From positions 58,224 through 122,223 of the forward strand of contig DMXO01000004.1 of assembly GCA_003482855.1 (NCBI GenBank): a DNA stretch of 64,000 bases, written 5' to 3'. This document shows, in pieces, positions 7,090 through 49,052 of the stretch (positions within the stretch are counted from its first letter, which is position 1; each line of letters opens with the position of its first letter). The notes under the pieces were generated by a model. The model worked only from the letters and a program-made list of their open reading frames with translations. It did not search any database and was not told the DNA's origin. The translations under genes and the position numbers were made by a program. The DNA is from Candidatus Magasanikiibacteriota bacterium (GTDB taxonomy: Bacteria; Patescibacteriota; Patescibacteriia; Magasanikbacterales; UBA922).

Positions 7090-7171
7090 GATATTGGATA
7101 TCAAAATTGTTCTATTGTTAAATTGTTATACTGTTGACGACGCAGCTCGGAAGGGCTGTTTTTTGTTTTTG

Positions 7172-7215
7172 ACAAGTGACACTTGACTAATACGGATTTT
7201 TATAGTATATTATGC
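7172..7215 (+). promoter_or_regulatory. Sigma70-like promoter (TTGACA/TTGACT ... TATATT) for GC-rich gene 1
   Basis: TTGACT at 7187, 17-nt spacer, TATATT; AT-rich, unlike the GC-rich CDS it drives. Confidence 0.5.
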
Positions 7216-7220
7216 CATTA

Positions 7221-7268
7221 AAAAAGAACGAAATAGTCTTATTTTTTGTAGTACTATTTCGCTCTTTT
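7221..7268. promoter_or_regulatory. Imperfect 16-bp inverted repeat AAAAGAACGAAATAGT / ACTATTTCGCTCTTTT (operator-like), followed by a short GC hairpin and strong SD
   Basis: Read directly; one mismatch; motif AAAAAGAACGAAA recurs at 8153 upstream of GC-rich gene 2. Confidence 0.45.
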
Positions 7269-7344
7269 TACAGTCTACCTGACAAACAGTAATTTCCCCT
7301 TCACCTATGAAAGGTGACGGGCTCAAGAGAAGGGGGTTTCGTAG

Positions 7345-8001
7345 ATGCTTCAGATCCACGACAGAAAGATCTCCGCGGTTCGCGCGGGGATGCTCCAGGG
7401 TCACTGTGGGGCCATGACCCCACTGTTCTTGACCACACATGATGGTCTTCGTGTGGTGGAGTACCTCCAAGGCATCGCGCGTTCGTTTTCGTGGTCGGAG
7501 GTGCCGTCGCTCCTGGATCAGATCACGGCTCTTCGTCTGCCCGCGGACGACGAGATGTTCGGTCGCTGGCTCGACCAGATCGAGCCGACCGGGCGCTCGG
7601 AGATCACGATCGCACGTGGTCAGATCAGAGGCGACGTTTACGTCGCCGCGTTCCCTGTGCGTGAGGGTCGTCCGATGACCGACGCGCCGATCTACTCCTT
7701 GACCCAGGCCATAGAGTTCGCCCGGGTTTGGTTCTCGGAGGGGAGGATCACCACGGCCGAAGTCATCCACATGATCAAGGGTCTGCACGCCCTCGGGCTT
7801 GGCACGCAGGCCCCGCAGGCGGTCCTTCGGGTGTTCAACACCGACGAGATCATCTCTCGTGCCCAGCTGGGCCTCCGGGTCTTCGCGGCGCGGGAGTTCA
7901 CCGGTGACGATCTCGCGCTCATGGAGCAGATCGCGGTTCGGAAGCGGTGCTTCAAGACCGCATTCCCGGGCCGGGAGTACGAGGCATTTCCTGGGCTGTA
8001 G
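7345..8001 (+). CDS. Hypothetical protein, GC-rich cassette 1 gene A (218 aa)
   Basis: Strong G/C bias at third codon positions on + strand, SD AGAAGGGGG 6 nt upstream of ATG; opposite-strand ORFs are GC artefacts; no recognised motif. Confidence 0.6.
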   Translation: MLQIHDRKISAVRAGMLQGHCGAMTPLFLTTHDGLRVVEYLQGIARSFSWSEVPSLLDQITALRLPADDEMFGRWLDQIEPTGRSEITIARGQIRGDVYVAAFPVREGRPMTDAPIYSLTQAIEFARVWFSEGRITTAEVIHMIKGLHALGLGTQAPQAVLRVFNTDEIISRAQLGLRVFAAREFTGDDLALMEQIAVRKRCFKTAFPGREYEAFPGL

Positions 8002-8124
8002 TCAGGCGAGAGTCTCGCGCTAGATGTCGTACCTGCTGAAGAGTGGGTATGGTAGAGGCGCGTGGCTTGGCGTGGCTGGCGATGTGCGATTCTGTCGCGC
8101 GTCGTCGGCCGGGCCTGACTCTTG

Positions 8125-8141
8125 TGCACATTTAAAAATGT
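8125..8141. promoter_or_regulatory. Perfect palindrome CACATTT-aa-AAATGTG upstream of GC-rich gene 2, followed by AAAAAGAACGAAA motif
   Basis: Read directly; 7-bp arms, 2-nt spacer; lies in an AT-rich intergenic segment between two GC-rich CDSs. Confidence 0.4.
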
Positions 8142-8253
8142 GTAGAAGAGTCAAAAAGAACGAAACGAGTTCATCAAAGTGGATTATTTTGGTTCTTTTG
8201 TGTTTTGTGTCATTCGCTAACTTCCTGCCCGTGGGCAGGTGAGAGGAGGACTC

Positions 8254-8796
8254 GTGAAGAAGAAGCTGTATCTCCAGACCGAGTACAACCCGCGTGGTAT
8301 CGTGGGGTGGTTCGAGGTCTGGAGCGAGAGGGGGCAACTCCTCTCGAAGACCCTCAAGTTCGGGGATATCGCGGCGGCGCGTCTCATCGCCCTGCCCATG
8401 CTCGTCGATGAGGGTCACGAAGACCTCGTCGCCGAGGGGTCACGGATCATCGACGTGCTCATCGAGTGGCTCCGAACGAACCAGATGGGGGGGACCGTCA
8501 CCTTCTCGTTTCAGGACGGCCGTCCGAAGATCGAGGAGAAGTACGTCCCTAACCGTCGACCGGAGCCTTCTCCGTCGAGATTCTCGGCCGTGATCGGCGG
8601 TCGAGACGGTCTTCGGTTCCGACCAGTCGGCAGCGGCGTCCCTGAGCTCACGCTCGGTGGGCTTTTCCGCTACCTCCGCCAGGCCGGCGTGGCCACTGAG
8701 GTCGACGAGAGGCGGTGGCGGGTTGCCGTCGGCGACGGGGACCCGGAGGACGAGGACATGTCCGGGGGCGGCGACGACCCGGCGTGTGGCGACTAA
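8254..8796 (+). CDS. Hypothetical protein, GC-rich cassette 1 gene B (about 180 aa)
   Basis: SD GAGAGGAGGA at 8241-8250 then GTG at 8254 (ORF track starts at alternative GTG 8239); GC3-biased; hairpin CCTGCCCGTGGGCAGG just upstream; acidic Gly/Asp-rich C-terminus. Confidence 0.55.
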   Translation: MKKKLYLQTEYNPRGIVGWFEVWSERGQLLSKTLKFGDIAAARLIALPMLVDEGHEDLVAEGSRIIDVLIEWLRTNQMGGTVTFSFQDGRPKIEEKYVPNRRPEPSPSRFSAVIGGRDGLRFRPVGSGVPELTLGGLFRYLRQAGVATEVDERRWRVAVGDGDPEDEDMSGGGDDPACGD

Positions 8797-8931
8797 GTGT
8801 CTCTTGTCGCGTCTGCTACGGCGGACGCGACGGAGCATGAGACTACCACAACAATGGCCGGCGCGTGTGATTCATTCGCACGTCGCCGGCCAAGGAGTTC
8901 AGTATATATTTGGGATAAAAATATATAGTGA

Positions 8932-8963
8932 ACTAAAAACAACCGCTTTGTTGGTTGTTTTTT
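8932..8963. terminator. Bidirectional rho-independent terminator (AACAACC...GGTTGTT flanked by A and T runs)
   Basis: Hairpin with T7 run on + strand and T-rich run on - strand; sits between the end of GC-rich gene B and the end of ahcY. Confidence 0.6.
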
Positions 8964-8989
8964 TGTAACGTGTTTTGTATTACATGAAT

Positions 8990-10402
8990 TTAATACCGAT
9001 ACCACTCGCTCTTAAACGGCCCTTTTTCATCTATACCAATATAATTTGCTTGTGATTTTGTGAGTTTGGTAAGTTTTACTCCAATTTTTTCCAAATGCAA
9101 TCGCGCCACTTCTTCATCCAAATGTTTTGGTAATCTGTATACACCGATTTCGTACTTATTTTTCCATAAATCAAGTTGAGCAAGCACTTGATTGGTAAAA
9201 CTATTGCTCATGACAAAACTTGGATGACCAGTTGCACAGCCAAGATTCATGAGACGGCCTTCCGCGAGCATATAAATTGCTTTACCATTTGGCATGATAT
9301 ATTTATCGACTTGAGGTTTTATATTTATTTTTTTCACGCCTTTTGTTTTATTCAATTTTTCAACTTGGATTTCATTGTCAAAATGTCCAATGTTTGACAC
9401 GACTGCTTGATCTTTCATTTTTTTCATGTGTTCGACCGTAATAACTTCTTTATTTCCTGTCGCAGTAACATAAATATCTGCTTCGCCAAGTGTATCTTCT
9501 ACTGTTTTTACTTCATATCCTTCCATAGCAGCTTGCAATGCACAAATAGGATCAATTTCAGTGACAATGACACGCGCACCTTGCCCGCGTAGAGCTTGGG
9601 CGCATCCTTTACCAACCTCGCCAAACCCGCATACAACTGCGACCTTGCCGCCGATCATGACATCCATTGCGCGATTGAGTCCATCGATGACTGAATGACG
9701 GCAACCATAGATATTATCAAATTTTGATTTGGTAACAGAATCATTCACGTTAATTGAAGGGAAAAGAAGTTTTCCTTCTTTTTCCATTTGATACAAGCGA
9801 TGCACGCCGGTTGTTGTTTCTTCGCTCACGCCTTTTACTTGTTTGGCAACTGCAGTCCAGCGAGTTTTATTTTTTGCATATTCTGTTTTCAATAATTTCA
9901 TCAATTCTCTAAAATCCTCTTGCTCTTTTGAATAATTTTTTTGCAATAATTTTGGATCTGATTCTACCTCAACGCCTTTATGGATCATCATAGTAGCATC
10001 TCCTCCATCGTCAACAATCATGTTAGGACCTTTGCCATTAAAATCCAATGCTCTCTCTGTGCACCACCAATATTCTGCAAGCGTTTCACCTTTCCACGCA
10101 AACACGGGGACTTTTGAATCGCGAACCACTGCTGCGGCTGCATGATCTTGCGTAGAAAAAATATTGCAACTTGCCCATCGTACATTGGCACCAAGCGCTT
10201 TCAATGTTTCAATTAAAACAGCTGTTTGGATAGTCATGTGCAAACTACCCATGATATTTACATTTTTTAGTGGTTTTTGTTTCGCATATTTTTTGCGAAT
10301 TGTCATAAGACCTGGCATTTCTTGTTCTGCGATGTCTATTTCTTTTCTACCCCAGTCGGCGAGTTTGATGTCTTTTATTTTAAATTCAAATTTTTTTGTC
10401 AT
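8990..10402 (-). CDS. ahcY: Adenosylhomocysteinase (S-adenosyl-L-homocysteine hydrolase)
   Basis: NAD-binding [15 protein letters not shown], conserved DDGGD and catalytic regions; start taken at MTKKFEF (ATG 10402) rather than the upstream in-frame extension. Confidence 0.9.
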
Positions 10403-10410
10403 AAAAATAG

Positions 10411-11364
10411 TTAACCACGTTGAATAAGATACATTGTATATATAATATATAATGTGACAAATGTAATGCCTTGCCAACGGTCTACTTTATTTCTTCTGCC
10501 AATAAACATAAATACAAAGAGTAATACGGTCGCTCCAACGCCTACCAAGACATCAATATTTGCTGTAGGATTGAAAGGTAATTGGAGCATGGTGCCTGTA
10601 AGACCAAGTATCCAAAATACATTGAATATATTTGACCCAACGATATTACCGACAGCAATGTCATCGTGATGATGCATTGCGGCGATGATAGATGTAGCTA
10701 GCTCAGGTAGTGATGTACCTACGGCAACTATGGTAAGACCGATAAGCGCTTCAGACATTCCGGCAATTCGTGCAAGTATAATAGCGTTGTCAACCAGCAA
10801 TTTTCCTCCAAGGAATAAACACACAAGCCCGCCGACGGTCATGATAATTGATAATCTCCATGAGTATGTGGTGATGTGTTCAGGCTTTCCTTCTGCTTTT
10901 GATAAGGCAAAAATATAAAACATGAAAATGATAAATATGGCAATAAGAGAAAAACCATCTGTTCTTGTAATGGCGCTGTGGGAGACACCGTCAAATAGCA
11001 TGTCATTTCCCATGGTATAGACAAGCACTATAGCCAGAATTGCAAATGGAATTTCTTTCCACACTGTGTTTCCTTTCACATTGAGTGGGTATATGATAGA
11101 TGCAATACCGAGTATGAGGAGTATATTTGCTATATTGCTTCCAACAATATTGCCGATGGCTATGTCAGCAGAACCTTTTACTGCTGATATGATATTTACA
11201 ATAAGCTCTGGGGCGGATGTACCAAAGGCGACCACAGTAAGACCTATGACAATAGAAGATATGCCCCATTTTTTTGCCATGGATGCTGAACCGCGAACCA
11301 AAATTTCTGCCCCGAAAATCAGTACGCCGAGGCCTAAGATAAGAAATATAATTGCCAGAGTCAT
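10411..11364 (-). CDS. Ca2+/Na+ antiporter (CaCA / YrbG family)
   Basis: Two alpha-repeat motifs GTSAPEL and GTSLPEL, about 10 TM segments; start chosen at MTLAIIF (ATG 11364). Confidence 0.8.
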
Positions 11365-11425
11365 AAGAAAATTTAAAAATAAAACACGCGTAGTATAGCG
11401 TGTTTTTGGTTTGAAATCAAGCAAT

Positions 11426-12373
11426 TTACATTTTTAAACTCATAGGTTCACCATACGTCTCTACGTACCTTTTTTCAAATTCTTCTGTTGTATAACTGTG
11501 GTTTACGGTGCCATAGTTTTCTACTGCATACGTTGCTGCAACACTTGCCATCTGCCCACAAGTCTTGAGATCAAGACCACGTGTATACCCCGTGAAAAAT
11601 CCCCCTCGGTATGCGTCGCCTGCTCCAGTTGGGTCATCTACTGATAGAGCAGGACAGGGTTTTATTTCAATTGATGTATCCTTTGTAATAATCACAGATC
11701 CTCTGTCTCCAAGTGTAATGATGAGTACTTCTACATGGTTGAGGAGTTCATTGGTATTCCAGCCAGTTTTTTCTTCTACAAGTTTTATCTCATAATCATT
11801 GCCAATAAAGAATTTTGCTTGTCCGATAACAGCTGCGAGTTCTTGATTTGAAAAAGCAGTAATCTGTTGGCCTGGGTCAAAACAAAAGGGGATACGTGCA
11901 TCATAACATTCTTTTGCATGTTGTATCATGGCTTCTTTTTTTGTTGGTGAGATAAGCGCGAAGTCAACTTTTTCTTTTATATTGGCGATATGCAAATCTG
12001 TTGCTTCGCTTAAGGCACCATTGTAGAATGCAGTGATTTGGTTGTCGTCTTTGTCTGTTGTGATATGAGCGCCCGCGGTGAGTAAATTTTTTGACATAGA
12101 GATACCAGAAGTTTTTATATCATGTGAGGCCAAGAAATCAAGAAGTTCTTGTCCGTCTTTGCCAAGTGGAGCAAGAACAACTGGTTCGCCACCGAGTAAT
12201 TTTGTAGTATACGCGATATTTGTTGCTACGCCGCCAATGTTTTTTTGTAATTTTTCTACAACAAAACATACATTTAGGATATGCAGTTGGTCTGGTAAGA
12301 TATGATTTTTGAAACTATCAGGGAAATCCATGATGTAATCGTAGGCCAATGAACCTGAAATTAAAATGTTCAT
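11426..12373 (-). CDS. PfkB-family carbohydrate/nucleoside kinase (likely adenosine kinase)
   Basis: Ribokinase-fold motifs GGVATN and DPTGAGDAYRGG; genomic context next to ahcY suggests adenosine kinase (inference). Confidence 0.7.
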   Translation of the reverse strand: MNILISGSLAYDYIMDFPDSFKNHILPDQLHILNVCFVVEKLQKNIGGVATNIAYTTKLLGGEPVVLAPLGKDGQELLDFLASHDIKTSGISMSKNLLTAGAHITTDKDDNQITAFYNGALSEATDLHIANIKEKVDFALISPTKKEAMIQHAKECYDARIPFCFDPGQQITAFSNQELAAVIGQAKFFIGNDYEIKLVEEKTGWNTNELLNHVEVLIITLGDRGSVIITKDTSIEIKPCPALSVDDPTGAGDAYRGGFFTGYTRGLDLKTCGQMASVAATYAVENYGTVNHSYTTEEFEKRYVETYGEPMSLKM

Positions 12374-12429
12374 AATTGAGGTAGTTAGATTTTAGGTATT
12401 AGGTTTTAGAATATATTATATGTTATAGA

Positions 12430-13710: not shown

Positions 13711-13743
13711 AGTGGGGATATCATAGCAAAAAAACATTCTTTG

Positions 13744-13832
13744 TACAAAAAAACTACCTGGCAGTCCTACAGCGTCTCCCATGCCAAGCCTCCTTGGAGC
13801 AAATGGGTGCTATTCTGAACGTCAGGTAGTTT
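13744..13832 (-). terminator. Complex intrinsic terminator / structured leader element (13-bp outer stem with nested hairpins, followed by U7 on the - strand)
   Basis: 13751-13763 pairs with 13820-13832 (12/13); nested CCCAT...ATGGG and CCAAG-CCTC-CTTGG hairpins; rc of 13744-13750 gives TTTTTTT immediately 3'. Confidence 0.45.
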
Positions 13833-15459: not shown

Positions 15460-15462
15460 AAA

Positions 15463-19758: not shown

Positions 19759-19759
19759 A

Positions 19760-21916: not shown

Positions 21917-22423
21917 TTATTTTTGAATGTAGTTGAGAATTATTTTTTTTCTTGGATCTTCCATTTTTTCCAATACTTTTTGTATAATATCTTCTCTGAA
22001 TTTTTCTTTGGTTTGTTTGGGGTTTTTGTTTTTCGTATAAATAAATTCTACATTGAATATCAAATCTAGTTCTTCTTCTATCTTTTTTTGTGTTTTAGCT
22101 TTTTGAAGCAAAAATTCTATAAAGCAGTTTTTGTATTGTTCTAGTGTTTTACAATTTAAGAAATTTTGTGGACCAAAAAGTACTTTGTCTTCATTGCTTG
22201 CTTTGTAGAGTCCAGCAGAAAAATTGTTTTTCTTTCGTTCATCTTTTACCAGATTATAAAGAGGACAGTTTGGACAATCATTGTTACATTTTCTCACATC
22301 ATCTGTGTCAAATATAAATCTAAATCCGCGCCAATCGTCTATAATAATATTAATAAAATTGTTATATTCTTTTGAAAATTTATTGAATTTATTTTGTGCA
22401 ATCGTAAGGATTTTTTTGTTCAT
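21917..22423 (-). CDS. Hypothetical AT-rich 169-aa protein with CNNDCPNCP cysteine motif, directly downstream of the rSAM-SPASM gene
   Basis: ATG at 22423 (MNKKILTIAQ...); the ORF-track extension into the GC-rich region is spurious read-through of the open frame. Confidence 0.55.
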   Translation of the reverse strand: MNKKILTIAQNKFNKFSKEYNNFINIIIDDWRGFRFIFDTDDVRKCNNDCPNCPLYNLVKDERKKNNFSAGLYKASNEDKVLFGPQNFLNCKTLEQYKNCFIEFLLQKAKTQKKIEEELDLIFNVEFIYTKNKNPKQTKEKFREDIIQKVLEKMEDPRKKIILNYIQK

Positions 22424-22440: not shown

Positions 22441-22475
22441 GGTAGTCGGGTACGCGAGGTGCGTACCCGACTACC
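22441..22475. terminator. Perfect 15-bp stem hairpin GGTAGTCGGGTACGC-gaggt-GCGTACCCGACTACC just 3' of the rSAM gene
   Basis: Read directly; no strong U-run follows, so possibly an attenuating or processing hairpin rather than a full terminator. Confidence 0.5.
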
Positions 22476-22478
22476 TGC

Positions 22479-23576
22479 TTAATCCTCCTTGAGGTGGGGT
22501 AGCGGGCACAGGGTGTATCCGCCACAGGGGTCACCCATACCCTCGACCGTCGCGCGGCAACCACCGCGGCACTTGTCCCAGCGGTCGCACGAGCCACATG
22601 GCTCGCCGACGGTCTCCTGGGTCAGGGCGAGGCGCGAGCAGATCAGGTCGGACTCGTACGCCGCCCGGATGGGGTCTGGGTCGTCGACGTGACCGAGCGG
22701 GACCGTGGAGTTCGAGCACGCACGGATGCTTCCGTCGACTGCGAAGTATAGCCCCTTGTCGTAGAAGGGACATGAGCCGAACAGGTGGGGCATGAGTACT
22801 GCGGCTCGTGGGTTTTTGAATTCCGGCCAGAGGCCGTCGTCCATGGCCGAGGCGGAGGACTGCATGTAGTCGCGTCCCTGGTGCTCGAGCGTGCGGATCA
22901 AATCCGCAAGCTCCTCGGGCGTCGGCGCGACCTCGAAGTACTCCGGTCCGACCGGCTCGCCCGAGCCCATGAGCTCGAGATCCACACCGATTCCCCTCAT
23001 CCTGCAGAACCGGATGTAGTCGGGCACGAGCGCGATGTTGTCTTTGCGGATCAGATTCTGGAGCCGGAACAGCGGATCGCGATATCCGACCCCGCAGAAC
23101 ACGTCGATCGCCGTGCGCATCTTGCGCGCCATGTCGACGGTCGATCCAATCATCTGTACCTGGAGGCGTATTTGGTCGGGGTCGTTCGAGTCGGCGATGT
23201 TCCACTTGCCGGTGATGTGCACGCGGCGCTCGTAGAGCCAGGCGGCGAGTTCGGGCGTGATCGAGATCATGTTGGTGAACACCCACGGTTTGATGCCACG
23301 GGAGATGAGGATCTCGATGTATTCCTTGAGGTGGGGCCACAGGAGTGGCTCTCCGCCGAGGATGTCCATGGTCTCGAGCTCAGCGCCACGGTATTCGCGA
23401 CAGAGGTCGAGAATCCGAACCGCCTGGTTGAGTGTCATTGATCCGTTGCCCAGCTTGTCACGGCGCACCATATAGCAACCAGGGCATCGGAGTTGACAGC
23501 GCGAGGTCACTTCGATGATGCCGTAGCGTAGGCCGGCCCCGGTCTTCTCTTCGTAGCGCTTGCTGATGTCAGTCAT
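22479..23576 (-). CDS. Radical SAM enzyme with C-terminal SPASM/twitch domain (peptide/protein-modifying rSAM maturase-like), GC-rich
   Basis: CxxxCxxC (CQLRCPGC) near N-terminus; C-terminal CGSCDRWDKCRGGC Cys cluster; start at MTDISKRYEE (ATG 23576) overlapping the stop of the upstream 119-aa gene. Confidence 0.8.
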   Translation of the reverse strand: MTDISKRYEEKTGAGLRYGIIEVTSRCQLRCPGCYMVRRDKLGNGSMTLNQAVRILDLCREYRGAELETMDILGGEPLLWPHLKEYIEILISRGIKPWVFTNMISITPELAAWLYERRVHITGKWNIADSNDPDQIRLQVQMIGSTVDMARKMRTAIDVFCGVGYRDPLFRLQNLIRKDNIALVPDYIRFCRMRGIGVDLELMGSGEPVGPEYFEVAPTPEELADLIRTLEHQGRDYMQSSASAMDDGLWPEFKNPRAAVLMPHLFGSCPFYDKGLYFAVDGSIRACSNSTVPLGHVDDPDPIRAAYESDLICSRLALTQETVGEPCGSCDRWDKCRGGCRATVEGMGDPCGGYTLCPLPHLKED

Positions 23577-23928
23577 GTCGTTCTCCTTGGTTTTGGCACC
23601 ATGCTTCCATTTCGTGCATGATGCGATTCCATTCCTCTTCGTTTCCTGAGCGGTGGATGTACTGGTAGTTGGGAGTATCTTCGACAATTTCTATTTTTTT
23701 CCGTATGTTCTCCCTTCTTTCTCGAGGTCGTTTGTCGTCCACAGAAGGCCAACATCGGTTGAACCATGTAGCGAATACCACTTCGCCGTCCTGTTTGAGG
23801 ACAACGATGTCGTCGCCGTGTCCATAAAAGAGTACATTGACCTCAGTGGTCGGATCCTCTTTGATCAGACTAGCTACGGTTTGCCATGTCTTATTCAAGC
23901 TTGGCAGATCCCAGATGCTTTTCTTCAT
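23569..23928 (-). CDS. Hypothetical 119-aa protein, translationally coupled to the rSAM-SPASM gene
   Basis: SD AAGAGG 6 nt upstream of ATG 23928 (MKKSIWDL...); stop overlaps rSAM start (ATGACTGA); intermediate GC. Confidence 0.55.
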   Translation of the reverse strand: MKKSIWDLPSLNKTWQTVASLIKEDPTTEVNVLFYGHGDDIVVLKQDGEVVFATWFNRCWPSVDDKRPRERRENIRKKIEIVEDTPNYQYIHRSGNEEEWNRIMHEMEAWCQNQGERHD

Positions 23929-23958: not shown

Positions 23959-24240
23959 GAATGGCCGCAGCTTTCTAAGCTATTGCCGTGCGGCACTTGT
24001 AGGTTCTGCCCCTGCAACTCGTTGGTTCACTACCACGTGTGATATCTTTTCACCAAAGTACCTTTTGTAAATAAAAAATCGCCTTTCAGCGATTGGACGA
24101 CCTCAAAGTAAACTAACCCATTGGCTGTTTACCCGAGGCCTTTTGTGTGATGTAAATTATTTAAAAATATATAGTTCATAGTGTTATAATGTATTAACAC
24201 ATTAATACATATTTTATCTTATGTCAAATAAAGACTGTGG
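23959..24240 (-). promoter_or_regulatory. Promoter (TTGACA ... TAATGT) plus ~290-nt structured leader with intrinsic terminator (ATCGC-tgaaag-GCGAT-TTTTTT); candidate attenuator/riboswitch
   Basis: Read on - strand: -35/-10 near 24215-24185, leader hairpin CCUCGGGUAAAC/GUUUACUUUGAGG, then terminator hairpin + U6 at about 24075-24098, then 140 nt to the ATG. Confidence 0.4.
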
Positions 24241-24268: not shown

Positions 24269-24550
24269 TTATTTCTCGGAATCTAATGCTTTGGGATATC
24301 CTCCTTCTCCATGATGTAACCAATGTGCGATACGTGTCACTGTCGTGGTGCTCAGTCCTGTTTTTTGTGCAATATCTCTGTAAGGCACGCCTTTGTGTAT
24401 CAGGTGTACTGCTTCCCAGCGTCGAGACATTTCTTCCAATTCTTCGAGCGTACATAGATCGCGCAAAAAATTAAGGATGTCTTCTTCTTTTTTCAACGAA
24501 AGAAAAGCCCGCGAAAGTTTTTTAAGTTGTGGTGTTTTCCAGGTTTTCAT
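24269..24550 (-). CDS. TrpR-like YerC/YecD-family small DNA-binding protein
   Basis: 93 aa; motif ...PYRDIAQKTGLSTTTVTRIAHWL... typical of YerC/YecD Trp-repressor-like family. Confidence 0.7.
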   Translation of the reverse strand: MKTWKTPQLKKLSRAFLSLKKEEDILNFLRDLCTLEELEEMSRRWEAVHLIHKGVPYRDIAQKTGLSTTTVTRIAHWLHHGEGGYPKALDSEK

Positions 24551-35699: not shown

Positions 35700-35725
35700 C
35701 AATTGTTTTAATTATAACTTCCAGA
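35700..35725 (-). terminator. Terminator AACAATcGC-ttttgaa-GCaATTGTT + U6 downstream of the GC-rich 114-aa gene
   Basis: Read directly on the - strand. Confidence 0.5.
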
Positions 35726-35811
35726 CCTTGGTACTCTCTGCAAATAAGTTACCACGTAAAGAAATTTTATTCCCACGTGGTTTACAAAGAATATGCAGGG
35801 GTCTGGAAGTC
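35719..35811. repeat. 11-bp perfect inverted repeat ACTTCCAGACC / GGTCTGGAAGT enclosing 71 bp that contains a CCACGT...ACGTGG sub-palindrome
   Basis: Read directly; lies between the stop of the GC-rich 114-aa gene and its terminator. Confidence 0.5.
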
Positions 35812-35850
35812 GGAACTTCATGCGCGCACCCCCGAGTAGCGCGCATCTCT

Positions 35851-36195
35851 TCAGACGCCGGTCTCTTCGTACCAGTGTTGCGCGACCGAGGCCGCGTGTT
35901 CGAACCGCTTGGCCAGATCCCCGGCCAGCTTCCTGCCCTCTCGGGACAACCCCCGCAGACGGGCGTGCAGCCTGAGCCGACTGGCCATGTTGTGGGTCAG
36001 CCGGAGGATCTCGAGCGATGAACCACTCTCAATCTCCGGCTTGAGCTGTTCACTGTAGAGGTTGTCTGCGTCGTACCAGATCGCTTTTGCGATCTTGTCA
36101 TGACCGGCTTGCTCTACTGCTCGAGCGAGATCCTCTAGCCTCTTACAGGCTCTCTCGAGAGCTCTTGCCCAGCTTTTCACTGCGCCCTGATTCAT
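35851..36195 (-). CDS. Hypothetical GC-rich 114-aa helical protein (cassette 3)
   Basis: GC3-biased coding on - strand, predicted all-helical, own AT-rich promoter (TTGACT...TTATGT) at about 36270-36300. Confidence 0.5.
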   Translation of the reverse strand: MNQGAVKSWARALERACKRLEDLARAVEQAGHDKIAKAIWYDADNLYSEQLKPEIESGSSLEILRLTHNMASRLRLHARLRGLSREGRKLAGDLAKRFEHAASVAQHWYEETGV

Positions 36196-36379
36196 GCTTG
36201 TTCCAATCCACCCCGTCGTGGGGTTGTTGTGGGACTTCTGGGTTTAGTTTCTGAGAACAAAACACGATAACATAAACATAAAGAGAGAGAGAAGTCAATG
36301 CTTATTATTTTAAAAATAAATTGTGGATAACTTTGTTAGTAAAATAAGCCAAATTTTTATTTAGAATTTTAATTTTTGC

Positions 36380-43200: not shown

Positions 43201-44118
43201 TTGTTTGAAGCGCGTAATCCAAAAAGAAAAGCAGTATTGTCTGAAGTAGATGGTGTCGTCGAGATTGAAGATGCTGATGGCAAGGTTATCACAAGTCCTA
43301 CTGGTCGCAAAATATTTGAAGGACGACGTGGACAAAAAATTATCAAAGTATATCATGAGGGTATAGAAGAAGTAGTGTTTGATGTAGAAGAGACTGATGA
43401 TGTGAAAGTAGAAGATGGGCAGAAAGTAAAGAAAGGTGATAAGCTCATCGTGAGAGGTGGTTCTGGCGAAGATATCAAAGCTGGTGATCCGGGTACTATC
43501 CGTCGTGATGGAGAAAAACTTATATTGGTTTATGACGGCAAGACGACCAAAGAATATGTCATCCCTATGGGATATAAACTCTGGGTCAAACATGGTGACA
43601 CGGTGCAAAAAGGTGACCAGCTTACCGAAGGCGCTGTTGATCTTCAAGAATTGTTTGAACTCAAAGGTCAGGATGCTGTCAAGCGATATGTTCTCATTGA
43701 GATTCAGGAAATTTATGCGTCTCAAGGTCAACGTTTGAATGATAAACATATTGAGATCGTTATCAAACAAATGTTCTCTCGTGTCTTTGTTGAAGATCCT
43801 GGTGATACAGATTTGTTGCCCGGTGAGGTAGTAGAGCGCGCACAGCTTATTATCTCCAATAGGCAAGCAGAGAAAGAGGGTAAGAAGAAAGCAAAAGTTC
43901 GTGATATGCTCATGGGTATTAGCAAAGTGTCTCTCACGACACAAAGTTTCTTGTCATCTGCTTCATTTCAAGAAACATCCCGTGTGCTCGTAAATGCAGC
44001 TATCACGGGTAAGATGGATTATCTCGAGGGATTGAAAGAGAATGTCATTATCGGTCGTCTCATACCTGCTGGTACCGGTATATATGGTACTGGCGTACGT
44101 GTACCTGAAGAAGAATAA
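40234..44118 (+). CDS. rpoC: DNA-directed RNA polymerase subunit beta'
   Basis: 1294 aa, zinc-binding CxxC...CxxC N-terminus, NADFDGD catalytic motif. Confidence 0.97.
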   Translation: MARDSLHTMNFDALRLRVASPETIRKWSYGEVYKPETINYRTQKPEKGGLFAEEIFGPTKDWECYCGKYKKIRYKGIVCDKCGVEVTHSLVRRERMGHIELATPVSHIWFLRTIPSRVGLVLDLSIQALEKVIYFASFIITHVNEEELRITHDALKKEYKSKKKQIENEFNQKVAQAAKGDIAACEKERDRKYEALEEDFKQADVELKEIAMLNIISEAHYQELSLRYGHLFEASIGAEAIRGLLERLNLSETVERLEKEIKKSKGAKRERLLRRVKLLKSLEKNGLRPEWMIMTNIPVIPPDLRPMVALDGGRFATSDLNDLYRRVINRNNRLRRLQELNAPEVICRNEKRMLQEAVDALIDNNARATKTVRASTGQKRQLRSLADILKGKQGRFRQNLLGKRVDYSGRSVIVVGPNLKINECGLPKTIALELFKPFIMSEIIKRELAHNVRSASRFIESNAPEVWDILEALTKKTRVLLNRAPTLHRLGIQAFRPILVEGKAIRLHPLVCPAFNADFDGDQMAVHLPLSEQAKWEAENLMASEKNLLKPATGSPVITPAQDIALGCYYMTKYKESDTAEVKKYFANITEAKYAYKTRFITLKERIKVRFSDLSKFEEGQSAIVETSIGRIFFNEILPNKLVYFNQVITKKDLSNIIQSLLEIYGQEVTAHHLDKIKSLGYKYVTKSGYSLGKDDFPSLDMKAEVLAAADTQVQLVQEQYGEGLLTDSERHSKILEIWAEAKDNLLAHSKDVLDKDKSVFAMIDSGARGSWGQLGQVIAMKGLVASPSGDIIELPVKGNFKEGFDVLEFFISSHGTRKGLSDTALRTANAGYLTRRLVDVAQEVVVKEEDCGDTVGELFTREQSEQMGEKLSERVLGRFVLADVKAGKKTIVKMGEVVAEEAARIIEKDKIDNIHVRSVLQCNLPKGVCSKCYGYDLGNRQVVRVGTAVGTIAAQSIGEPGTQLTMRTFHLGGVAGGDITQGLPRVEELFEARNPKRKAVLSEVDGVVEIEDADGKVITSPTGRKIFEGRRGQKIIKVYHEGIEEVVFDVEETDDVKVEDGQKVKKGDKLIVRGGSGEDIKAGDPGTIRRDGEKLILVYDGKTTKEYVIPMGYKLWVKHGDTVQKGDQLTEGAVDLQELFELKGQDAVKRYVLIEIQEIYASQGQRLNDKHIEIVIKQMFSRVFVEDPGDTDLLPGEVVERAQLIISNRQAEKEGKKKAKVRDMLMGISKVSLTTQSFLSSASFQETSRVLVNAAITGKMDYLEGLKENVIIGRLIPAGTGIYGTGVRVPEEE

Positions 44119-44140
44119 TTTTGTAGAAATTTAAAAAACT

Positions 44141-44166
44141 CCCCGTAAAAGCGGGGAGTTTTTTGA
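44141..44166. terminator. Bidirectional terminator AAAAACTCCCCG-taaaa-GCGGGGAGTTTTTT
   Basis: Perfect stem with flanking A/T runs between rpoC end and convergent gene. Confidence 0.8.
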
Positions 44167-44178
44167 TTAAAATGGAAT

Positions 44179-45660
44179 TTAGTGCTTGGAGACTAGAAAA
44201 GGTTTCATTAGGTTTTTTATTTTTATGAAGTTTTGGTTTGCGTTGACCTCGACTATATCACCAGTTTGAAAAAATTTTGTCGCTGAACCAGTACCCACGA
44301 TACAAGGCACTCCGAGTTCACGCGACAGTATAGCAGCATGACACATTATTCCACCTTGATCTGTCACTATTGCCCCAGCCAACCTCATAGCCGGTACATA
44401 TTCAGGGCTAGTCATGGTTGTAATCAACACCTCACCCTTTTTAATGTTTTTAATTTCATTAGCTTCGCGAATGATCCTTACTCTGCCAGTATAAGAACCA
44501 GCTGATGCTGTCACTCCCAAAAGCAAAGATTTTTTATTTTTTATTTCTTTTTTGTGCCCTACTAGGATTTTGTTTGCTTTTACACCTAAGAACATTTCTA
44601 CTTTATTTTTATTAAAAACAAATAAGCTATTTTTGCTTCTATCTTTCAAAACATCTTCTCTCGTTAAGACATTGTTTAATAAGGCTGATTTCAATTCTTC
44701 TGGCAAATGATATTGTATCAATTCGCGCCTAGTATTTAATCTTTTGGAAATTTCTTCAAGCAAACCAATGATATGATAATGTACCAAAGTGAATTTTTCT
44801 TTTTTATAATCCTGTAAGTAAGATGCCAGACGCAAGTTATTAAATAAATTTTTATGTGTCCTGTCAACTTTATGTTTTTTTTCTAAATTTGTTTGCTGTT
44901 TTCGCAATTCCTTAGAATATTTTTTGCTAGTTAGTAAACGATTTTTCATGTCACCTTGTTTTAGAATACGATCTAAAATCACAAAAAAATATTTTTCATC
45001 CCACAAGTCTAAGCCATAATCATAAGGCACCCAAGAATATTTTTTAGTGTGTATTTTTATAGCTTCCGTCTGGTCCTTAATTTTTTTATTTTTTATTTTT
45101 AAAGCAATATTTAACAAATCATCCTCTTCTTCTTTGGCAAAAGATTTTTTTTGTGGTGCTGAAAGAATTGAATAGGTGGCTGTTAATTCTTCAGGATTAA
45201 AAATTTTTTTGCTTAAATATTTTTTTAAATAACTGCCTAATGATTCTTCCAAACCTAAAACCACCGGTTCACTCCACGGGTAAGCAGCCGTGTATAATGT
45301 AAAATACTTAGAAAACACCTGCCAAAGTTCCTGATTGGTCTTTTTACTTAGATTGGTTTTATAAATACTAAAAGCAAATTTATTTAGGTGTAACATTTTT
45401 TGATTATATTTTTTGATTATATTATCCAAAAAATTTTTATCTTTTTTAACTAATAACAAAGTTTGTTTGTTTACTTTATTTACTCTCGCTTCCGATGCGT
45501 ACCAATACATTATGCCATCTACATATTGTACTAGGGTAATACCAAAAGACAAGCCGAGTGAATCTTTCATGTGTTCACTATAAGATTGAGCAATTATATA
45601 AGCATTAGGTATTAAATGAATCCCTTCTTTTTGCTGCATGAAAATATAATCCTTATTCAT
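44179..45660 (-). CDS. Protein with C-terminal PEP-utilising-enzyme mobile (phosphohistidine swivel) domain; N-terminal region unassigned
   Basis: C-terminal GGIMCHAAILSRELGVPCIVGTG matches the PpsA/PPDK/EI mobile-domain His motif; 493 aa. Confidence 0.65.
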   Translation of the reverse strand: MNKDYIFMQQKEGIHLIPNAYIIAQSYSEHMKDSLGLSFGITLVQYVDGIMYWYASEARVNKVNKQTLLLVKKDKNFLDNIIKKYNQKMLHLNKFAFSIYKTNLSKKTNQELWQVFSKYFTLYTAAYPWSEPVVLGLEESLGSYLKKYLSKKIFNPEELTATYSILSAPQKKSFAKEEEDDLLNIALKIKNKKIKDQTEAIKIHTKKYSWVPYDYGLDLWDEKYFFVILDRILKQGDMKNRLLTSKKYSKELRKQQTNLEKKHKVDRTHKNLFNNLRLASYLQDYKKEKFTLVHYHIIGLLEEISKRLNTRRELIQYHLPEELKSALLNNVLTREDVLKDRSKNSLFVFNKNKVEMFLGVKANKILVGHKKEIKNKKSLLLGVTASAGSYTGRVRIIREANEIKNIKKGEVLITTMTSPEYVPAMRLAGAIVTDQGGIMCHAAILSRELGVPCIVGTGSATKFFQTGDIVEVNANQNFIKIKNLMKPFLVSKH

Positions 45661-45665
45661 AAAAT

Positions 45666-47132
45666 CTAATTATTGTTTTGTGGAGTTAAAATTCTAACTG
45701 TGCCATGATTGGCTCGCACGGCCACAATATCACCGGTTTTAATTTGGGTAGTGGCAGTATGAGTATTTATTATACACGGCTTACCAGCCAAGCGAGCGTT
45801 AATAGCTGCATGACAGAGCATGCCTCCAGCATTGGTCACTATAGCTCCGGCTTTTTTTATAATTTCTATCATAGTATCGTCAGTCATTTCTGCAATTAAA
45901 ATTTCTCCAGTTTGAAACTTTTTTATATCTTCTTTTTTTTCTATCACCCGAGCAACTCCCTGAGCATAACCCTGAGCTCCAACTTTTCCCGCTACTGAAT
46001 GCCCCAGTTCACTTTGCTGTAAAATTTCCTGCAATTCTTCATAAACTTTTTTAACCTCTATTCCTTCAATTATTTTATAATCTTTGCCTAATATAGAAAG
46101 CAATAAACCCTGATTAAATCGATTTTTCAAAGTCTGTTTTTTAATTAGACCATGCAACAAATTATCCAATTCTTCAAAAGTTAAAAAATATAAAAAATCT
46201 ATTTCTATTCCAGTAATTTTTTTTAGTCGTTTAAATACTTTATTCCACAATTCTTGAATTTGCAAATTCACTGTTTGTCGATACTCACGCCATTGTCCCA
46301 ATTCTTTAAAAAATTCCAAAGGATTGGCGCTTAATTTATATTTTTTCAAAATCGTTTTAATAAACTGGTGATGTCTCTTGGCGCGCGCCATTGTCTCTTT
46401 GGTACGCTGGCTTTTGTCCAAAATATTTTCACTAGTCAAAAGTTCGGCAATTTCTGCTTGAGTAAAATTATAAATCTTACCAATTCGCGCCACTTCTTTA
46501 TTATCAAATCCCAAATCAAAGCTATCAATAAAAATTGCCGTGGACCAAAATTTTTTCAAAGTATTTTGCCACTGCTCTAAAAAATTCAACAATTCATTAA
46601 CACCCCATTCTAACGGAAAATCAGTTGCGTATTCCTGGCAAAAGGCTTCTACCTTTTTGCCATAATCAAAAAGACTTTCTTTTAACTCAAAATGTCGCCG
46701 ACTTAATTCTCCATATTCTTTATAAACTGCCTCTGCCATTTCTGCAAATGAGGAGGTAGTATGCCAAAAAACTTCACACACGCCATTTTTAAAATAAACA
46801 TCGCAAGTGCCCAAACCCTCATCAAAAAACTTTGGATTAGGATGAATAATGCCTGCAATTCTAGGCCAAAAAATTATAGGACTTAAATTCAGTACTTGGC
46901 GATACATTTTGGGAACACTTCCTTCATTTTGTTTGGATTCAAATTCTACTATATCAGTAATATCAAGGCCATAACGTTCACAGAGCCGGTCTAAGGTAGA
47001 AAACCACACCCCATCGGCTTTGCCATGAAAAAGTGCTGTAACAGTATTGCGATTTATACCAGTTTCTTGGCTAATTTCAGAGATATTTTTACCCAGTTTT
47101 TTCGCTACAGTATGTATTTTTAACTTAATCAT
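45666..47132 (-). CDS. Paralogous PEP-utilising mobile-domain protein with N-terminal HTH (XRE-like)
   Basis: N-terminal HTH KKLGKNISEISQETGINRNTVTALFHGK; C-terminal GGMLCHAAINARLAGKPCIINTH swivel-domain motif; start taken at MIKLKIH. Confidence 0.65.
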   Translation of the reverse strand: MIKLKIHTVAKKLGKNISEISQETGINRNTVTALFHGKADGVWFSTLDRLCERYGLDITDIVEFESKQNEGSVPKMYRQVLNLSPIIFWPRIAGIIHPNPKFFDEGLGTCDVYFKNGVCEVFWHTTSSFAEMAEAVYKEYGELSRRHFELKESLFDYGKKVEAFCQEYATDFPLEWGVNELLNFLEQWQNTLKKFWSTAIFIDSFDLGFDNKEVARIGKIYNFTQAEIAELLTSENILDKSQRTKETMARAKRHHQFIKTILKKYKLSANPLEFFKELGQWREYRQTVNLQIQELWNKVFKRLKKITGIEIDFLYFLTFEELDNLLHGLIKKQTLKNRFNQGLLLSILGKDYKIIEGIEVKKVYEELQEILQQSELGHSVAGKVGAQGYAQGVARVIEKKEDIKKFQTGEILIAEMTDDTMIEIIKKAGAIVTNAGGMLCHAAINARLAGKPCIINTHTATTQIKTGDIVAVRANHGTVRILTPQNNN

Positions 47133-47225
47133 AATGTAAGTATTTATAAGCATATTATAGTATATTTATATAATTTTGTCAATATTTCACAGTTTTTGTA
47201 ATGATTTCATTACAAAAATGTACAT

Positions 47226-47243
47226 AATACCATTGAAAATTAG
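47226..47243. promoter_or_regulatory. Perfect palindrome TGTAATGA-tt-TCATTACA (operator-like) next to promoter TTGAAA-N16-TATTAT and SD AAAGGAGGAGG of the B12-rSAM gene
   Basis: Read directly; 8-bp arms, 2-nt spacer; the whole promoter region is AT-rich while the CDS is GC-rich. Confidence 0.5.
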
Positions 47244-47320
47244 TCATCTTTTGATATTATATGCAGTTCCCTACACAGTGTCTGGGGGAAGATCTTTACA
47301 AAAGGAAAAAGGAGGAGGCC

Positions 47321-48955
47321 ATGAAGGCTTTCATCGTTGCGTTGATCTCGGCGTTTTGGCAGCTGTTCGGGTCGCATGGGGTTCGGGTTGCCTTGATCCA
47401 GCCGGTGCCACGGCTCAGGTCAAAATCTTTGGGAATTTTCAAGTCCCCGGAGAGTATTCAGGCCCTCGCGGGCCAGCTCGAGGCATTCGGATACAACGTG
47501 CGGATGTACCACTCATCCACAGGCTGGGGCATGATGATCAGGCTCCTGTTATTCAACCCTAACGTGGTCGGGGTCAGTACTATGACCCCAAATTTCCTCG
47601 AGGGGAAGCGGATCGCTCAGCTCCTGAAGCTGTGGCGACCTCGTCTTCCCATTGTGCTCGGAGGCTGGCATGCCTCGGGCGCGATCCAGGCTCACCTCCA
47701 TGGGCAGGAGAGCGAGAGTCTTGGGGAGATTCTCAACCCGAACTCGCCATTCGACTACGTCGTGGCGGGCGAAGGGGAAGAGATCTTCCCCAGGCTCATC
47801 GCGAGCCTGCTCGCGGGGAAGGAGGTCGAAGCCGAACCCGGCGTTAGCATCTTCCGCAATGGGGAGATCCAAGTCGGCGGCTCAACCCCGAGGATTACCA
47901 ACCTCAGGGAGATTGCTGAGCCCTCGTGGAGCGGACTCAAGATTAAGCGCTACCGAGACAAACGTTCCGGAGCGCTCGATCTGAGCGTCCACTTTAACCG
48001 ATCGTGTCGGTTTCAGTGTGCGTTCTGCTCAACCCCCACGGTGTACGGCCATGGGGTGAGGGTGACGCCTGCCCTGCAGGCGTTCGCCTACTTGAAAAGT
48101 GTGGTGGTGACCCACCGCCCACAGGTCATTACTTTCACCGACGAGGACTTCTTCGCCCACATGTCGTGGGTAGAGGAGTTGGTCAGCCTCCTCGAAACCG
48201 ACAACCTCGCAAAGCAGTTTGGAGTGTCGTTTGATACTTTTGCGAGCATCAACGACATCCACCGGCTCCGCAAGGCCGGCAAGGGATATTTCCTCGATCG
48301 TATGCGGGCGGTCGGGTTCGGAAGCTTCACGATCGGGGTTGAGAGTTTCAATCCCAACATCCTCCTTGCTTACAACAAGGAGATGATGATCCTCCCGACG
48401 ATGAGCCGGGAAGAGCGTGGGACCTACACGGGACTCGACAACGATCAGAAGAAGCGCGCACTCGTCACTCATTACCGCAAGCGGACCCAGGAAGCGATCA
48501 ACTTCGCTTCCGAACACGGCCTGCTGGTAGTCGGCGACTACATACTCGGCAACCTCGGCGAAAGCGTGGAGGACGTGCGAGCGGGTTTCGAGATTTTCAA
48601 AAACCTCGAAAACCTGCTTCTCGCATACATCCCTGTCTTCACACCGTTCCCGGGCACCAAGATCTGGGGCGACGCCTACTCGTCGGGTCTGCTCCCGCGC
48701 AACCCTGACGGAAACATTGACTGGATGCGCTTCAATGCATCAGCCGGGGCTCTCAACCTCGGTTACGACATCGGAGCGCTCCGCAATGAGCTCGAGATTG
48801 AGTTCTACACGTCCAGCCGCTACCGGCGAGACATGCTGAAAAACTTGGAGAGCACCCCTGCTCTCCGTGGCCTGTTCGTGGGCCGCTTCAGCTATCTCGG
48901 CCGACTGTTTCCCGGCGACGTCCGCGTCCGGGAAATGATCCAGCTACTGGGCTGA
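47321..48955 (+). CDS. B12-binding-domain radical SAM enzyme (class B rSAM, methyltransferase-like), GC-rich
   Basis: N-terminal cobalamin-binding Rossmann-like region (VVGVSTMTP...IVLGGWHAS), radical SAM CxxxCxxC (CRFQCAFC); start at ATG 47321 after SD. Confidence 0.75.
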   Translation: MKAFIVALISAFWQLFGSHGVRVALIQPVPRLRSKSLGIFKSPESIQALAGQLEAFGYNVRMYHSSTGWGMMIRLLLFNPNVVGVSTMTPNFLEGKRIAQLLKLWRPRLPIVLGGWHASGAIQAHLHGQESESLGEILNPNSPFDYVVAGEGEEIFPRLIASLLAGKEVEAEPGVSIFRNGEIQVGGSTPRITNLREIAEPSWSGLKIKRYRDKRSGALDLSVHFNRSCRFQCAFCSTPTVYGHGVRVTPALQAFAYLKSVVVTHRPQVITFTDEDFFAHMSWVEELVSLLETDNLAKQFGVSFDTFASINDIHRLRKAGKGYFLDRMRAVGFGSFTIGVESFNPNILLAYNKEMMILPTMSREERGTYTGLDNDQKKRALVTHYRKRTQEAINFASEHGLLVVGDYILGNLGESVEDVRAGFEIFKNLENLLLAYIPVFTPFPGTKIWGDAYSSGLLPRNPDGNIDWMRFNASAGALNLGYDIGALRNELEIEFYTSSRYRRDMLKNLESTPALRGLFVGRFSYLGRLFPGDVRVREMIQLLG

Positions 48956-49052
48956 GATGCCCAGTTTACATAGTTCTTTTCTCCCACGGGCAATTGTGGG
49001 TATACTCAAACTGGAGGATGATTGCCCCGTCCTCCCACTGATTATCATTTTT

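Follow-up and report, generated by a model that had tools for sequence, protein, structure and literature searches.

Several described arrangements resemble the locus examined here. A full integron pairs the integrase IntI with cassettes whose attC sites carry R″ (RYYYAAC) and R′ (GTTRRRY) cores, and clusters of attC sites lacking integron-integrases (CALINs) form a related class; replacement-type flexible islands, such as O-antigen and capsule loci, swap divergent alleles between conserved flanks; and phage morons are independent promoter-gene-terminator units of deviant composition that sit between phage genes. Acquired DNA is usually AT-richer. The present analysis concerns a 64-kb stretch (the window) of contig DMXO01000004.1, chromosomal DNA of a groundwater member of Candidatus Magasanikbacteria, within the candidate phyla radiation (CPR, or Patescibacteria), as the Magasanikbacteria labels of matching sequences and the housekeeping neighbours of its cassettes (ThrRS, RecA, FtsK, RuvC) attest. 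Four GC-rich blocks stand out in this AT-rich DNA, and they are best explained as independent gene-sized cassettes. Our preferred account, held with moderate confidence, is that laterally acquired units the size of a gene, drawn from a GC-richer CPR pool, replaced the occupants of resident expression slots, and that their GC excess then gradually decayed.

Single-gene granularity, a dedicated scaffold, reversed compositional polarity and density set these cassettes apart from islands, morons and integrons. The first of the four sites, slot 1, has in common with integron cassettes and CALINs an array of same-orientation orphan open reading frames (ORFs), structured palindromes and one resident promoter; unlike them, it yielded neither an integrase nor attC cores in the regions searched, its repeated element occurs at one locus, and several of the cassettes have promoters of their own. 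Flexible islands likewise show conserved flanks, divergent ORF alleles in close relatives, varying content and atypical composition, but each unit here is one gene, 0.3-1.6 kb long, with a scaffold of promoter, 5′ hairpin and 3′ hairpins dedicated to it, and is GC-richer than the host. The cassettes are self-contained units of foreign composition with their own promoters and terminal hairpins, as morons are; they are flanked, however, by genes for ThrRS, PIG-L, AdoHcyase, Wzy, an MFS transporter, FtsK, rpoB and PdxS/T. The moron candidacy thus fails on context, the neighbours being chromosomal and viral-contig relatives being absent from IMG/VR scans made with both radical S-adenosylmethionine (rSAM) enzymes, an rSAM profile, the 114-aa gene of cassette 3 and a profile of gene A; PHROGs returned generic rSAM matches only. 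A defence system was also considered and rejected, since PADLOC gave only weak viperin-like matches to the rSAM core.

The two rSAM enzymes of the window share Pfam domains and CxxxCxxC motifs with rSAM/SPASM maturases (PqqE, MftC and anSME types) and with class B methylases (TokK type), and PqqE, for the SPASM part, and TokK are their nearest solved structures, both as weak matches in the Protein Data Bank (PDB). Neither enzyme matched an NCBIfam equivalog at cut-off, and both, unlike the known maturases and methylases, belong to CPR-restricted families, that of the SPASM enzyme differing further from known SPASM maturases in that the enzyme's partners are always a TrpR-like protein and a small protein with a CxxxCxxC motif. 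No description of this three-gene module was found in the literature searched, nor did searches for CPR, GC-rich islands and rSAM yield a paper on GC-rich slot cassettes.

That GC-rich coding blocks interrupt an AT-rich genome, as an earlier note on this DNA had proposed, is borne out by several measures. Mean GC of the window is 40.6%, and a 500-nt profile rises three times to 57-66%, with a shorter fourth rise. The maximal-scoring segments lie at 7373-8891 (62.5% GC), 22447-23542 (63.0%), 35795-36017 (66.8%) and 47349-48932 (58.9%), which is 4.4-6.2 standard deviations (sd) above the 300-nt windows of the host background (n = 193; mean 39.1%, sd 4.5, maximum 49%). The first segment comprises two units, gene A and gene B; between them, at 8126-8220, lies AT-rich spacer DNA with a hairpin of its own. 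GC at third codon positions (GC3) is high in five genes (Table 1) and 0.23-0.40 in all 38 other ORFs of the window, rpoB and rpoC among them; of the six proteins that the note had counted as GC-rich, the sixth, the 119-aa product of cassette 2, is intermediate (GC 0.47). Third-position A accounts for 5-17% of codons across the five (5-10% in four), typical of high-GC codon usage.

The GC-rich zones reach beyond the ORFs into a 5′ leader hairpin and a hairpin-rich 3′ untranslated region (UTR) of 60-150 nt, and, with Shine-Dalgarno (SD) sequences and strong terminal hairpins (fold z-scores of -5 to -10) in place, the blocks are indeed discrete, self-contained transcription units. A sigma70-like promoter had been claimed before every cassette, and cassettes 1, 3 and 4 have one matching 9-10 of 12 positions, whereas cassette 2 combines a perfect -35 element (TTGACA, 24229-24224, minus strand) with a -10 (TAATGT) that fails the scan rule. 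The accompanying palindromes, said to be perfect or nearly so, are perfect in cassette 2 (24189-24210, 9-nt arms) and cassette 4 and 94% complementary at 7221-7269; that before cassette 3 (36305-36347, 81%, all A/T) is weak. Density is considerable, with six GC-rich genes in the window, four in the 20 kb read of locus L012 (labels of this form denote loci and contigs read for comparison), and roughly one per 5-15 kb over the regions read. Moderately to strongly GC-rich orphan genes also stand among AT-rich genes in further Parcubacteria loci (L121 at 2014-3187, 6948-8021 and 9074-10123; L012 at 2356-3042), so the mosaic is not peculiar to the window.

Evidence for exchange comes from slot 1, the interval between the ThrRS (or PIG-L) gene and the convergent AdoHcyase gene, compared across four species represented by the window, L020, L012 and L120. 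Downstream of its promoter the window carries a 5′ hairpin (5′HP), gene A, a structured 3′ module, a second 5′HP, gene B and a second 3′ module; L020, whose host genes are 81-83% identical in nucleotide sequence, has a 5′HP, a split B-like gene, a 3′ module and an extra AT-rich gene; L120 has a 5′HP, an A-like gene and a 3′ module; and L012 has a different gene, X, with a 3′ module, then a 5′HP, an A homologue and another 3′ module, followed by a second promoter and a 70% GC gene for a 182-aa acidic-repeat protein. The upstream terminator and the promoter can be aligned in all four species, whichever ORF comes next. The 5′HP (-17.3 kcal/mol, z -5.8 in the window) recurs in L020, L120 and L012; it is alignable in the three species where it lies directly 3′ of the promoter, the L012 copy lying further downstream, before A. 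The 3′ module, three hairpins in all and present after six cassettes of this slot, has two conserved hairpins with some compensatory changes. A covariance model, R1, trained on five copies, also recognised the sixth, that of L120, at 63 bits, although it was not part of the training set; R1 matches the modules after A, B and X, across all four species.

Most telling is the comparison of L012 with L120, whose host proteins are 86-95% identical, whose flanks, promoter included, are 84% identical in nucleotide sequence, and whose A 3′ UTRs are 79% identical, while the A proteins between them share 32% identity and lack any nucleotide match until it resumes a few nucleotides past the stop codon. 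Divergent genes between conserved flanks and 3′ UTR imply that ORF and leader were replaced within a conserved scaffold, and X, the 182-aa gene and B are gained or lost between species as complete units. The promoter of slot 1 is thus resident scaffold and the ORF its mobile part. At the level of sequence comparison, the scaffold of promoter, 5′ hairpin and 3′ module is shown to be kept between species, with the ORF exchanged or added. The earlier idea of native promoters driving foreign genes accordingly applies to slot 1.

Gene A belongs to a CPR-endemic orphan family, its codon-position pattern and conserved motifs fitting a real protein, with one homologue cluster among 5.8 billion proteins and four representatives in a profile search of 1.84 billion, Parcubacteria where labelled. 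Its GC is 0.63 in the window and about 0.57-0.59 in L012. The sole homologue found for gene B is that of L020, in the same slot. The A, B, 119-aa and 114-aa proteins had no match in Pfam, PHROGs, PADLOC or NCBIfam, and the AlphaFold2 model of A (predicted local distance difference test, pLDDT, 49) was unusable; A, B and the 114-aa protein are likely to be accessory proteins, putatively of fast turnover.

The 3′ module was also considered as a general cassette boundary and rejected, since R1 found no match outside slot 1 in 0.5 Mb of CPR DNA and cassettes 2-4 end differently. A genome-wide scan with the hairpin-2 motif gave 23 matches in other phyla, mostly in GC-rich genomes and taken as chance; L020, from Magasanikbacteria, was the one informative match. 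The X/A junction of L012 is palindromic, as is the A/B junction of the window, but the two differ in sequence, and an AT-cored palindrome (~8897-8934) follows the 3′ module of B.

Three further observations concern this slot and its left flank. In L020 a stop codon, with a perfect hairpin (tagctggacggg...cccgtccagcta) behind it, splits the B-like gene (2714-3332), which may have become a pseudogene or may consist of two parts. The window ThrRS (4418-6199) is 45% identical to those of L012 (7448-9238) and L120 (3988-5778), while syntenic neighbours are 53-81% identical and the L012 and L120 enzymes 95% identical to each other, which suggests a possible xenologous replacement of ThrRS in one lineage. 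Finally, 25-nt direct repeats (AATTGTTNTATTGTTAAATTGTTAT, 96% identical; 6226-6266 and 7105-7129) bracket the AT-rich PIG-L gene (6265-7089), the left copy lying inside a short tandem run with similarity extending perhaps to ~40 nt; L012 and L120 lack PIG-L at this locus, and the gene has the appearance of a further insertion, of host-like composition.

Cassette 2 tells a related story within a conserved operon. As the earlier note had recognised, two rSAM enzymes are present, and Pfam assigns Radical_SAM and Fer4_12 to the one in this cassette (PF04055 at 40.3 bits against a gathering cut-off of 29.5); the SPASM model TIGR04085 scores 23.7 bits, below its cut-off of 27, and the Cys-rich C-terminus CGSCDRWDKCRGGC aligns, as a weak PDB match, with the SPASM region of PqqE. 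Translational coupling of the 119-aa gene to the rSAM gene would fit their stop/start overlap. Homologues of the enzyme fall into more than 190 clusters (55-77% identity), spread over many CPR lineages (labels include Peribacter, Peregrinibacteria, Gracilibacteria, Doudna-, Buchanan- and Gribaldobacteria). In 50-60 loci it occurs as a module in which a TrpR-like helix-turn-helix (HTH) gene precedes the rSAM gene and a gene for a 150-185-aa CxxxCxxC protein (DN) follows. Only L057 holds a homologue of the 119-aa protein, a weak one in the corresponding position, and a hairpin occupies the same place after the rSAM stop in L048.

A motif related to the operator palindrome, ACGTATTAATACGT, follows TTGACA in 7 of 52 module loci (12-fold enriched), and the same leader architecture stands between the TrpR-like and rSAM genes of L016, L049, L053, L059 and L098, from which it follows that the promoter and operator of cassette 2 belong to the module and not to a regulator shared by the cassettes. 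The operator is probably read by the TrpR-like protein, and the leader, a long hairpin and a terminator, is a candidate attenuator or cis-regulatory RNA; it has no Rfam match, and sensitive scans of the leaders of cassettes 1 and 2 gave chance-level matches only. Judged by its gene content, cassette 2 is probably a TrpR-type autoregulated rSAM/SPASM module that modifies a protein or cofactor, with the 119-aa and 168-aa proteins next to the enzyme as candidates only for precursors of a ribosomally synthesised and post-translationally modified peptide.

The genes of this module are shown by their sequence relationships to have discordant histories. When loci are ranked by identity to the window copies, the rankings for TrpR, rSAM and DN show no correlation with one another (Spearman -0.19, 0.15 and -0.14), L098 and the Peribacter-like L048 combining high rSAM identity with low TrpR and DN identity, and L057 the reverse. 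In a neighbour-joining tree the window rSAM groups with that of L016 (syntenic, 77% identical; GC3 0.81 and 0.53, respectively), then with L098, then with two genomes of 54-61% GC, one of whose rSAM proteins is 88% identical to a protein labelled Peribacter; the window rSAM is 70% identical to Peribacter-like and ~60% to other Parcubacteria proteins. Such a pattern fits a swap confined to the rSAM ORF, with the incoming allele supplied by a GC-rich CPR lineage. In genomes whose flanks are at most 41% GC, rSAM GC3 takes a continuous spread of values between 0.25 and 0.81; function therefore does not depend on high GC, and the spread looks like stages of decay.

Cassette 4 encodes the second rSAM enzyme, with a B12-binding domain (PF02310, 39.1 bits, cut-off 32.1) and a radical SAM domain (PF04055, 37.3 bits, cut-off 29.5), and is probably a cobalamin-dependent rSAM enzyme of the methylase type. 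Its family comprises ~50 clusters at 35-67% identity, labelled CPR apart from one Woesearchaeota. The homologue in L118 (67% identical, GC 0.61, GC3 0.83) lies among different neighbours in flanks of 38% GC, and its 3′ UTR of ~130 nt is homologous to that of the window; a homologous ORF and 3′ UTR in a different context imply that the two move as a unit between genomes, and the sequences are taken to show that the gene has moved between contexts in this way. The palindrome of cassette 4 lies between two divergent promoters, one of them serving an HTH-containing host gene. Beside the L118 homologue, a GC-rich, hairpin-laden repeat of ~200 nt occurs twice (~9830-10030 and 10600-10800); a structured RNA is one candidate identity for it, a miniature mobile element another. 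Next to cassette 4 in the window, 44179-47153 holds a pair of paralogous, unusually AT-rich (GC 0.31-0.34) PEP-utilizers-domain genes, the first of which has an HTH_26 domain, is divergent from cassette 4 and has a perfect promoter.

Lateral replacement would bring these observations together as follows. Each AT-rich slot runs from the terminator of the preceding gene through a sigma70-type promoter, which often has a palindrome, and a leader to an ORF, GC-rich 3′ hairpins and a closing terminator, with the ORF carrying its own leader hairpin and SD sequence. ORFs would be swapped through recombination in the conserved flanks with DNA of other CPR cells, and the incoming alleles would derive from a gene pool of ~60% GC, GC-rich Peribacter-like CPR holding the nearest outgroup copies of the rSAM gene; at that composition new arrivals would stand out and would later drift towards that of the host. 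Genes A, rSAM and B12-rSAM each combine atypical composition with a discordant history, so that the horizontal origin put forward earlier is still the best reading. All homologues with a source label are CPR, plus one labelled Woesearchaeota, and import is supported by the ORF replacements, the GC3 continuum, the GC-rich rSAM outgroup and the rSAM copy of L017, which is AT-richer than its 51% GC host.

Several results weigh against import as the source of the GC excess. For A, B and the 114-aa gene the searches turned up no GC-rich donor, and the A family is known from AT-rich genomes only. Cassette codon usage is generically high-GC, correlating at 0.81 with Peribacter-like CPR and at up to 0.93 with unrelated high-GC bacteria; donor identification by codon usage, not being discriminating, was given up. 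The rSAM gene is GC-richer than its flanks by a mean of 8 percentage points over 34 loci (by more than 5 in 25, and poorer by more than 5 in one), its GC3 differing from that of the flanks by +0.10 on average (range -0.21 to +0.50, the window being the extreme case), whereas GC3 of the adjacent DN gene is below that of flanking genes in each of the 26 scored loci (mean -0.13, with 23 of them lower by more than 0.05), and these opposite compositions hint at gene-specific forces. Between syntenic orthologues of both rSAM and gene A, four-fold sites are near saturation and yet both copies are still GC-rich, so a plain one-off ancient transfer is insufficient and either renewal by repeated exchange or maintenance is needed. 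The recombination step itself is inferred.

The foremost alternative, less probable but to be taken seriously, is that the cassette genes are long-term residents of, or circulate only among, AT-rich Magasanikbacteria and Parcubacteria, with their GC actively maintained, candidate causes being selection (mRNA stability, codon-based throttling of translation, or stop-codon robustness of fast-evolving ORFs) and GC-biased recombination or repair at exchange hot spots. The opposed rSAM and DN compositions within one operon and the saturated but GC-rich orthologues favour it, as do the four A-family loci read, all in genomes of 39-43% GC with the gene itself at 47-63%, and the failure to find an outside donor in 1.84-5.8 billion proteins. 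It is harder to reconcile with rSAM orthologues at GC3 0.25-0.38 in equally AT-rich genomes (L090, L084), with the AT-richer L017 copy, and with the GC3 of the L119 B12-rSAM (0.49) and of an A relative in L121 (0.48); moreover, heteroduplex-based biased conversion is impossible between alleles that are 32% identical. Lateral exchange is part of import and of maintenance alike, and the two may be combined. A bolder and somewhat more doubtful proposal is that a hypervariable pool of accessory genes is kept GC-rich by Magasanikbacteria, and perhaps by Parcubacteria in general, in expression slots whose 5′HP and 3′ module serve as signals for exchange, RNA processing or both, with exchange proceeding without an integrase and the contrast being actively maintained instead of marking ordinary transfers yet to decay.

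An integron-like site-specific system, in which the hairpin modules would be attC-like, the slot promoter would act as Pc and the recombinase would be encoded elsewhere, is unlikely. Slot 1 does resemble one, in that same-orientation orphan ORFs (A, B, X) are each followed by a conserved imperfect-palindrome module recognised by R1, a single resident promoter stands at the left end and cassette number differs between species. The called genes of the window (from 1 to ~55.6 kb) and flanks, however, include no tyrosine-recombinase/Phage_integrase Pfam match, and no RYYYAAC or GTTRRRY core occurs in any of five 3′ regions; the tandem arrangement is found in slot 1 only, its 3′ module being limited to that locus and the ends of cassettes 2-4 being unrelated; and the module retains host-like identity after allele replacement, which homologous exchange fits better than excision and integration.

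The earlier note had itself proposed that the blocks form one horizontally acquired, co-regulated accessory system scattered over 40 kb, and that proposal now appears very improbable. High-GC codon usage is common to the blocks, two rSAM enzymes are present and each block has a promoter with a palindrome; but phyletic spread differs by orders of magnitude (four representatives for A, ~50 clusters for B12-rSAM, more than 190 for rSAM-SPASM), slot content turns over independently between sister species, rSAM-SPASM homologues never adjoin B12-rSAM or A homologues in the loci read, no large contig but the window's own is common to the match lists of both rSAM enzymes, and the palindromes are unrelated in sequence, that of cassette 2 being its own module's operator. 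Chimeric assembly, or contaminant pieces joined into an AT-rich contig, can be set aside almost entirely: short contigs do stop at or inside cassette 1 (L005 at 7337, L010 and L011 at 8206, L004 at 8722), but cassettes 1, 2 and 4 with their junctions, which the note had wanted checked, recur at 99.8-100% identity in independent assemblies (ENA NODE_6, 358 kb; JGI, 239 kb; NCBI GCA_001783195.1; MEGAHIT; Logan contigs), whose long contigs cross them at 100% identity, PIG-L adjoins gene A on at least 14 contigs, and related species hold GC-rich cassettes in the same slot between homologous flanks, so that these three cassettes are natural.

Cassette 3 holds a single 114-aa gene. Its product, described earlier as helical, is confidently predicted to form a four-helix bundle (pLDDT 87); no homologue was found, and a Foldseek search of the model against PDB returned generic bundles only, none at E<0.001. 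A resemblance to Avd (TM ~0.55) was discarded as not significant, and there is no reverse transcriptase among the Pfam annotations of the called genes. Rfam at the gathering threshold returned tRNA-Ser only. At the end of the window, a large ORF contains tandem coding repeats of ~100 nt (62796-63486), rich in Asp, Gly and Cys (NPDQxDxDGDGxGDVCD), which we take to resemble calcium-binding repeats of the thrombospondin type 3 kind.

Table 1. Coordinates of the cassette features in the window (promoter scores are matches out of 12).
Feature	Position	Strand	Remarks
Slot 1: intrinsic terminator of upstream PIG-L gene, left edge	7142..7165	+	position kept in L020, L120, L012
Slot 1: imperfect palindrome overlapping promoter	7165-7193		79% complementary
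Slot 1: resident promoter TTGACT-17-TATATT, 10/12	7183..7211	+	kept in four species whatever ORF is downstream
Slot 1: 5′HP, A5-GAACGAAATAGT...ACTATTTCGCTC-T5, terminator-shaped, leader of A	7221..7269	+	17-nt arms, 94%
Slot 1: start of GC-rich zone	7297..7336	+	leader hairpin 7297-7321; SD AAGGGGG 7330-7336
Gene A, 218 aa, GC3 0.80	7345..8001	+	GHCG...P.FLT motif
3′ module of A	8020..8122	+	hairpin 1 ~8027-8051, hairpin 2 8074-8110; from alignments; R1 95 bits
Junction palindrome between units A and B	8116..8153	+	18-nt arms, 89%
Second 5′HP copy, ahead of B	8154..8199	+	fold z -3.2
Gene B, 180 aa, GTG start, GC3 0.82	8254..8796	+	SD GAGGAGG 8243-8249; acidic C-terminal tail
3′ module of B	8800..8900	+	hairpin 1 8805-8832 (z -5.0), hairpin 2 8855-8892 (z -5.6); R1 79 bits
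Slot 1: bidirectional host terminator common to convergent AdoHcyase gene, right edge	8935..8965		homologous in L012, L120, L020
Cassette 2: TrpR-like HTH gene, 93 aa, PF01371, module gene 1	24269..24550	-	AT-rich; homologues in 53 rSAM loci
Cassette 2: module promoter and palindrome ATGTATTAA-N4-TTAATACAT over -10	24189..24229	-	putative operator
Cassette 2: leader hairpin and intrinsic terminator (attenuator-like) ahead of 119-aa gene	24077..24140	-	z -4.1
Cassette 2: 119-aa gene, GC3 0.53	23569..23928	-	stop overlaps rSAM start by 8 nt (ATGACTGA)
Cassette 2: rSAM-SPASM enzyme, 365 aa, GC3 0.81	22479..23576	-	CQLRCPGC motif (residues 27-34)
Cassette 2: perfect 15-bp GC hairpin directly after rSAM stop	22441..22475	-	-31.3 kcal/mol, z -9.95; end of GC-rich zone
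Cassette 2: module gene 3 (DN), 168 aa, GC 0.26	21917..22423	-	CNNDCPNC motif
Cassette 3: promoter-like site TTGACT-18-TATGTT, 9/12	36269..36298	-	
Cassette 3: 114-aa gene, GC3 0.70	35851..36195	-	
Cassette 3: structured 3′ UTR, GC hairpin and long nested hairpin	35702..35850	-	-61.3 kcal/mol, z -7.4
Cassette 4: divergent promoter of HTH-containing host gene, 12/12	47182-47154	-	
Cassette 4: palindrome	47193-47218	+	perfect 12-nt arms
Cassette 4: promoter TTGAAA-16-TATTAT, 10/12	47233-47260	+	
Cassette 4: B12-rSAM, 544 aa, GC3 0.76	47321..48955	+	SD AGGAGGAGG 47310-47318; CRFQCAFC at residue 229
Cassette 4: 3′ UTR	48956..49075	+	homologous to 3′ UTR of L118 gene

CPR account for a large share of bacterial diversity, and how genes are gained and lost in their small genomes is poorly understood. 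The window offers a concrete picture of gene-sized units swapped in promoter-to-terminator slots, with a compositional contrast opposite to that of the usual AT-rich import, and it defines a CPR-wide module of a TrpR-like protein, an rSAM/SPASM enzyme and a CxxxCxxC protein with a conserved predicted operator and leader terminator. If the GC excess is maintained, an unrecognised force would be acting on synonymous sites; if it is simply imported, recent gene flow among CPR lineages could be timed with GC3 as the clock.

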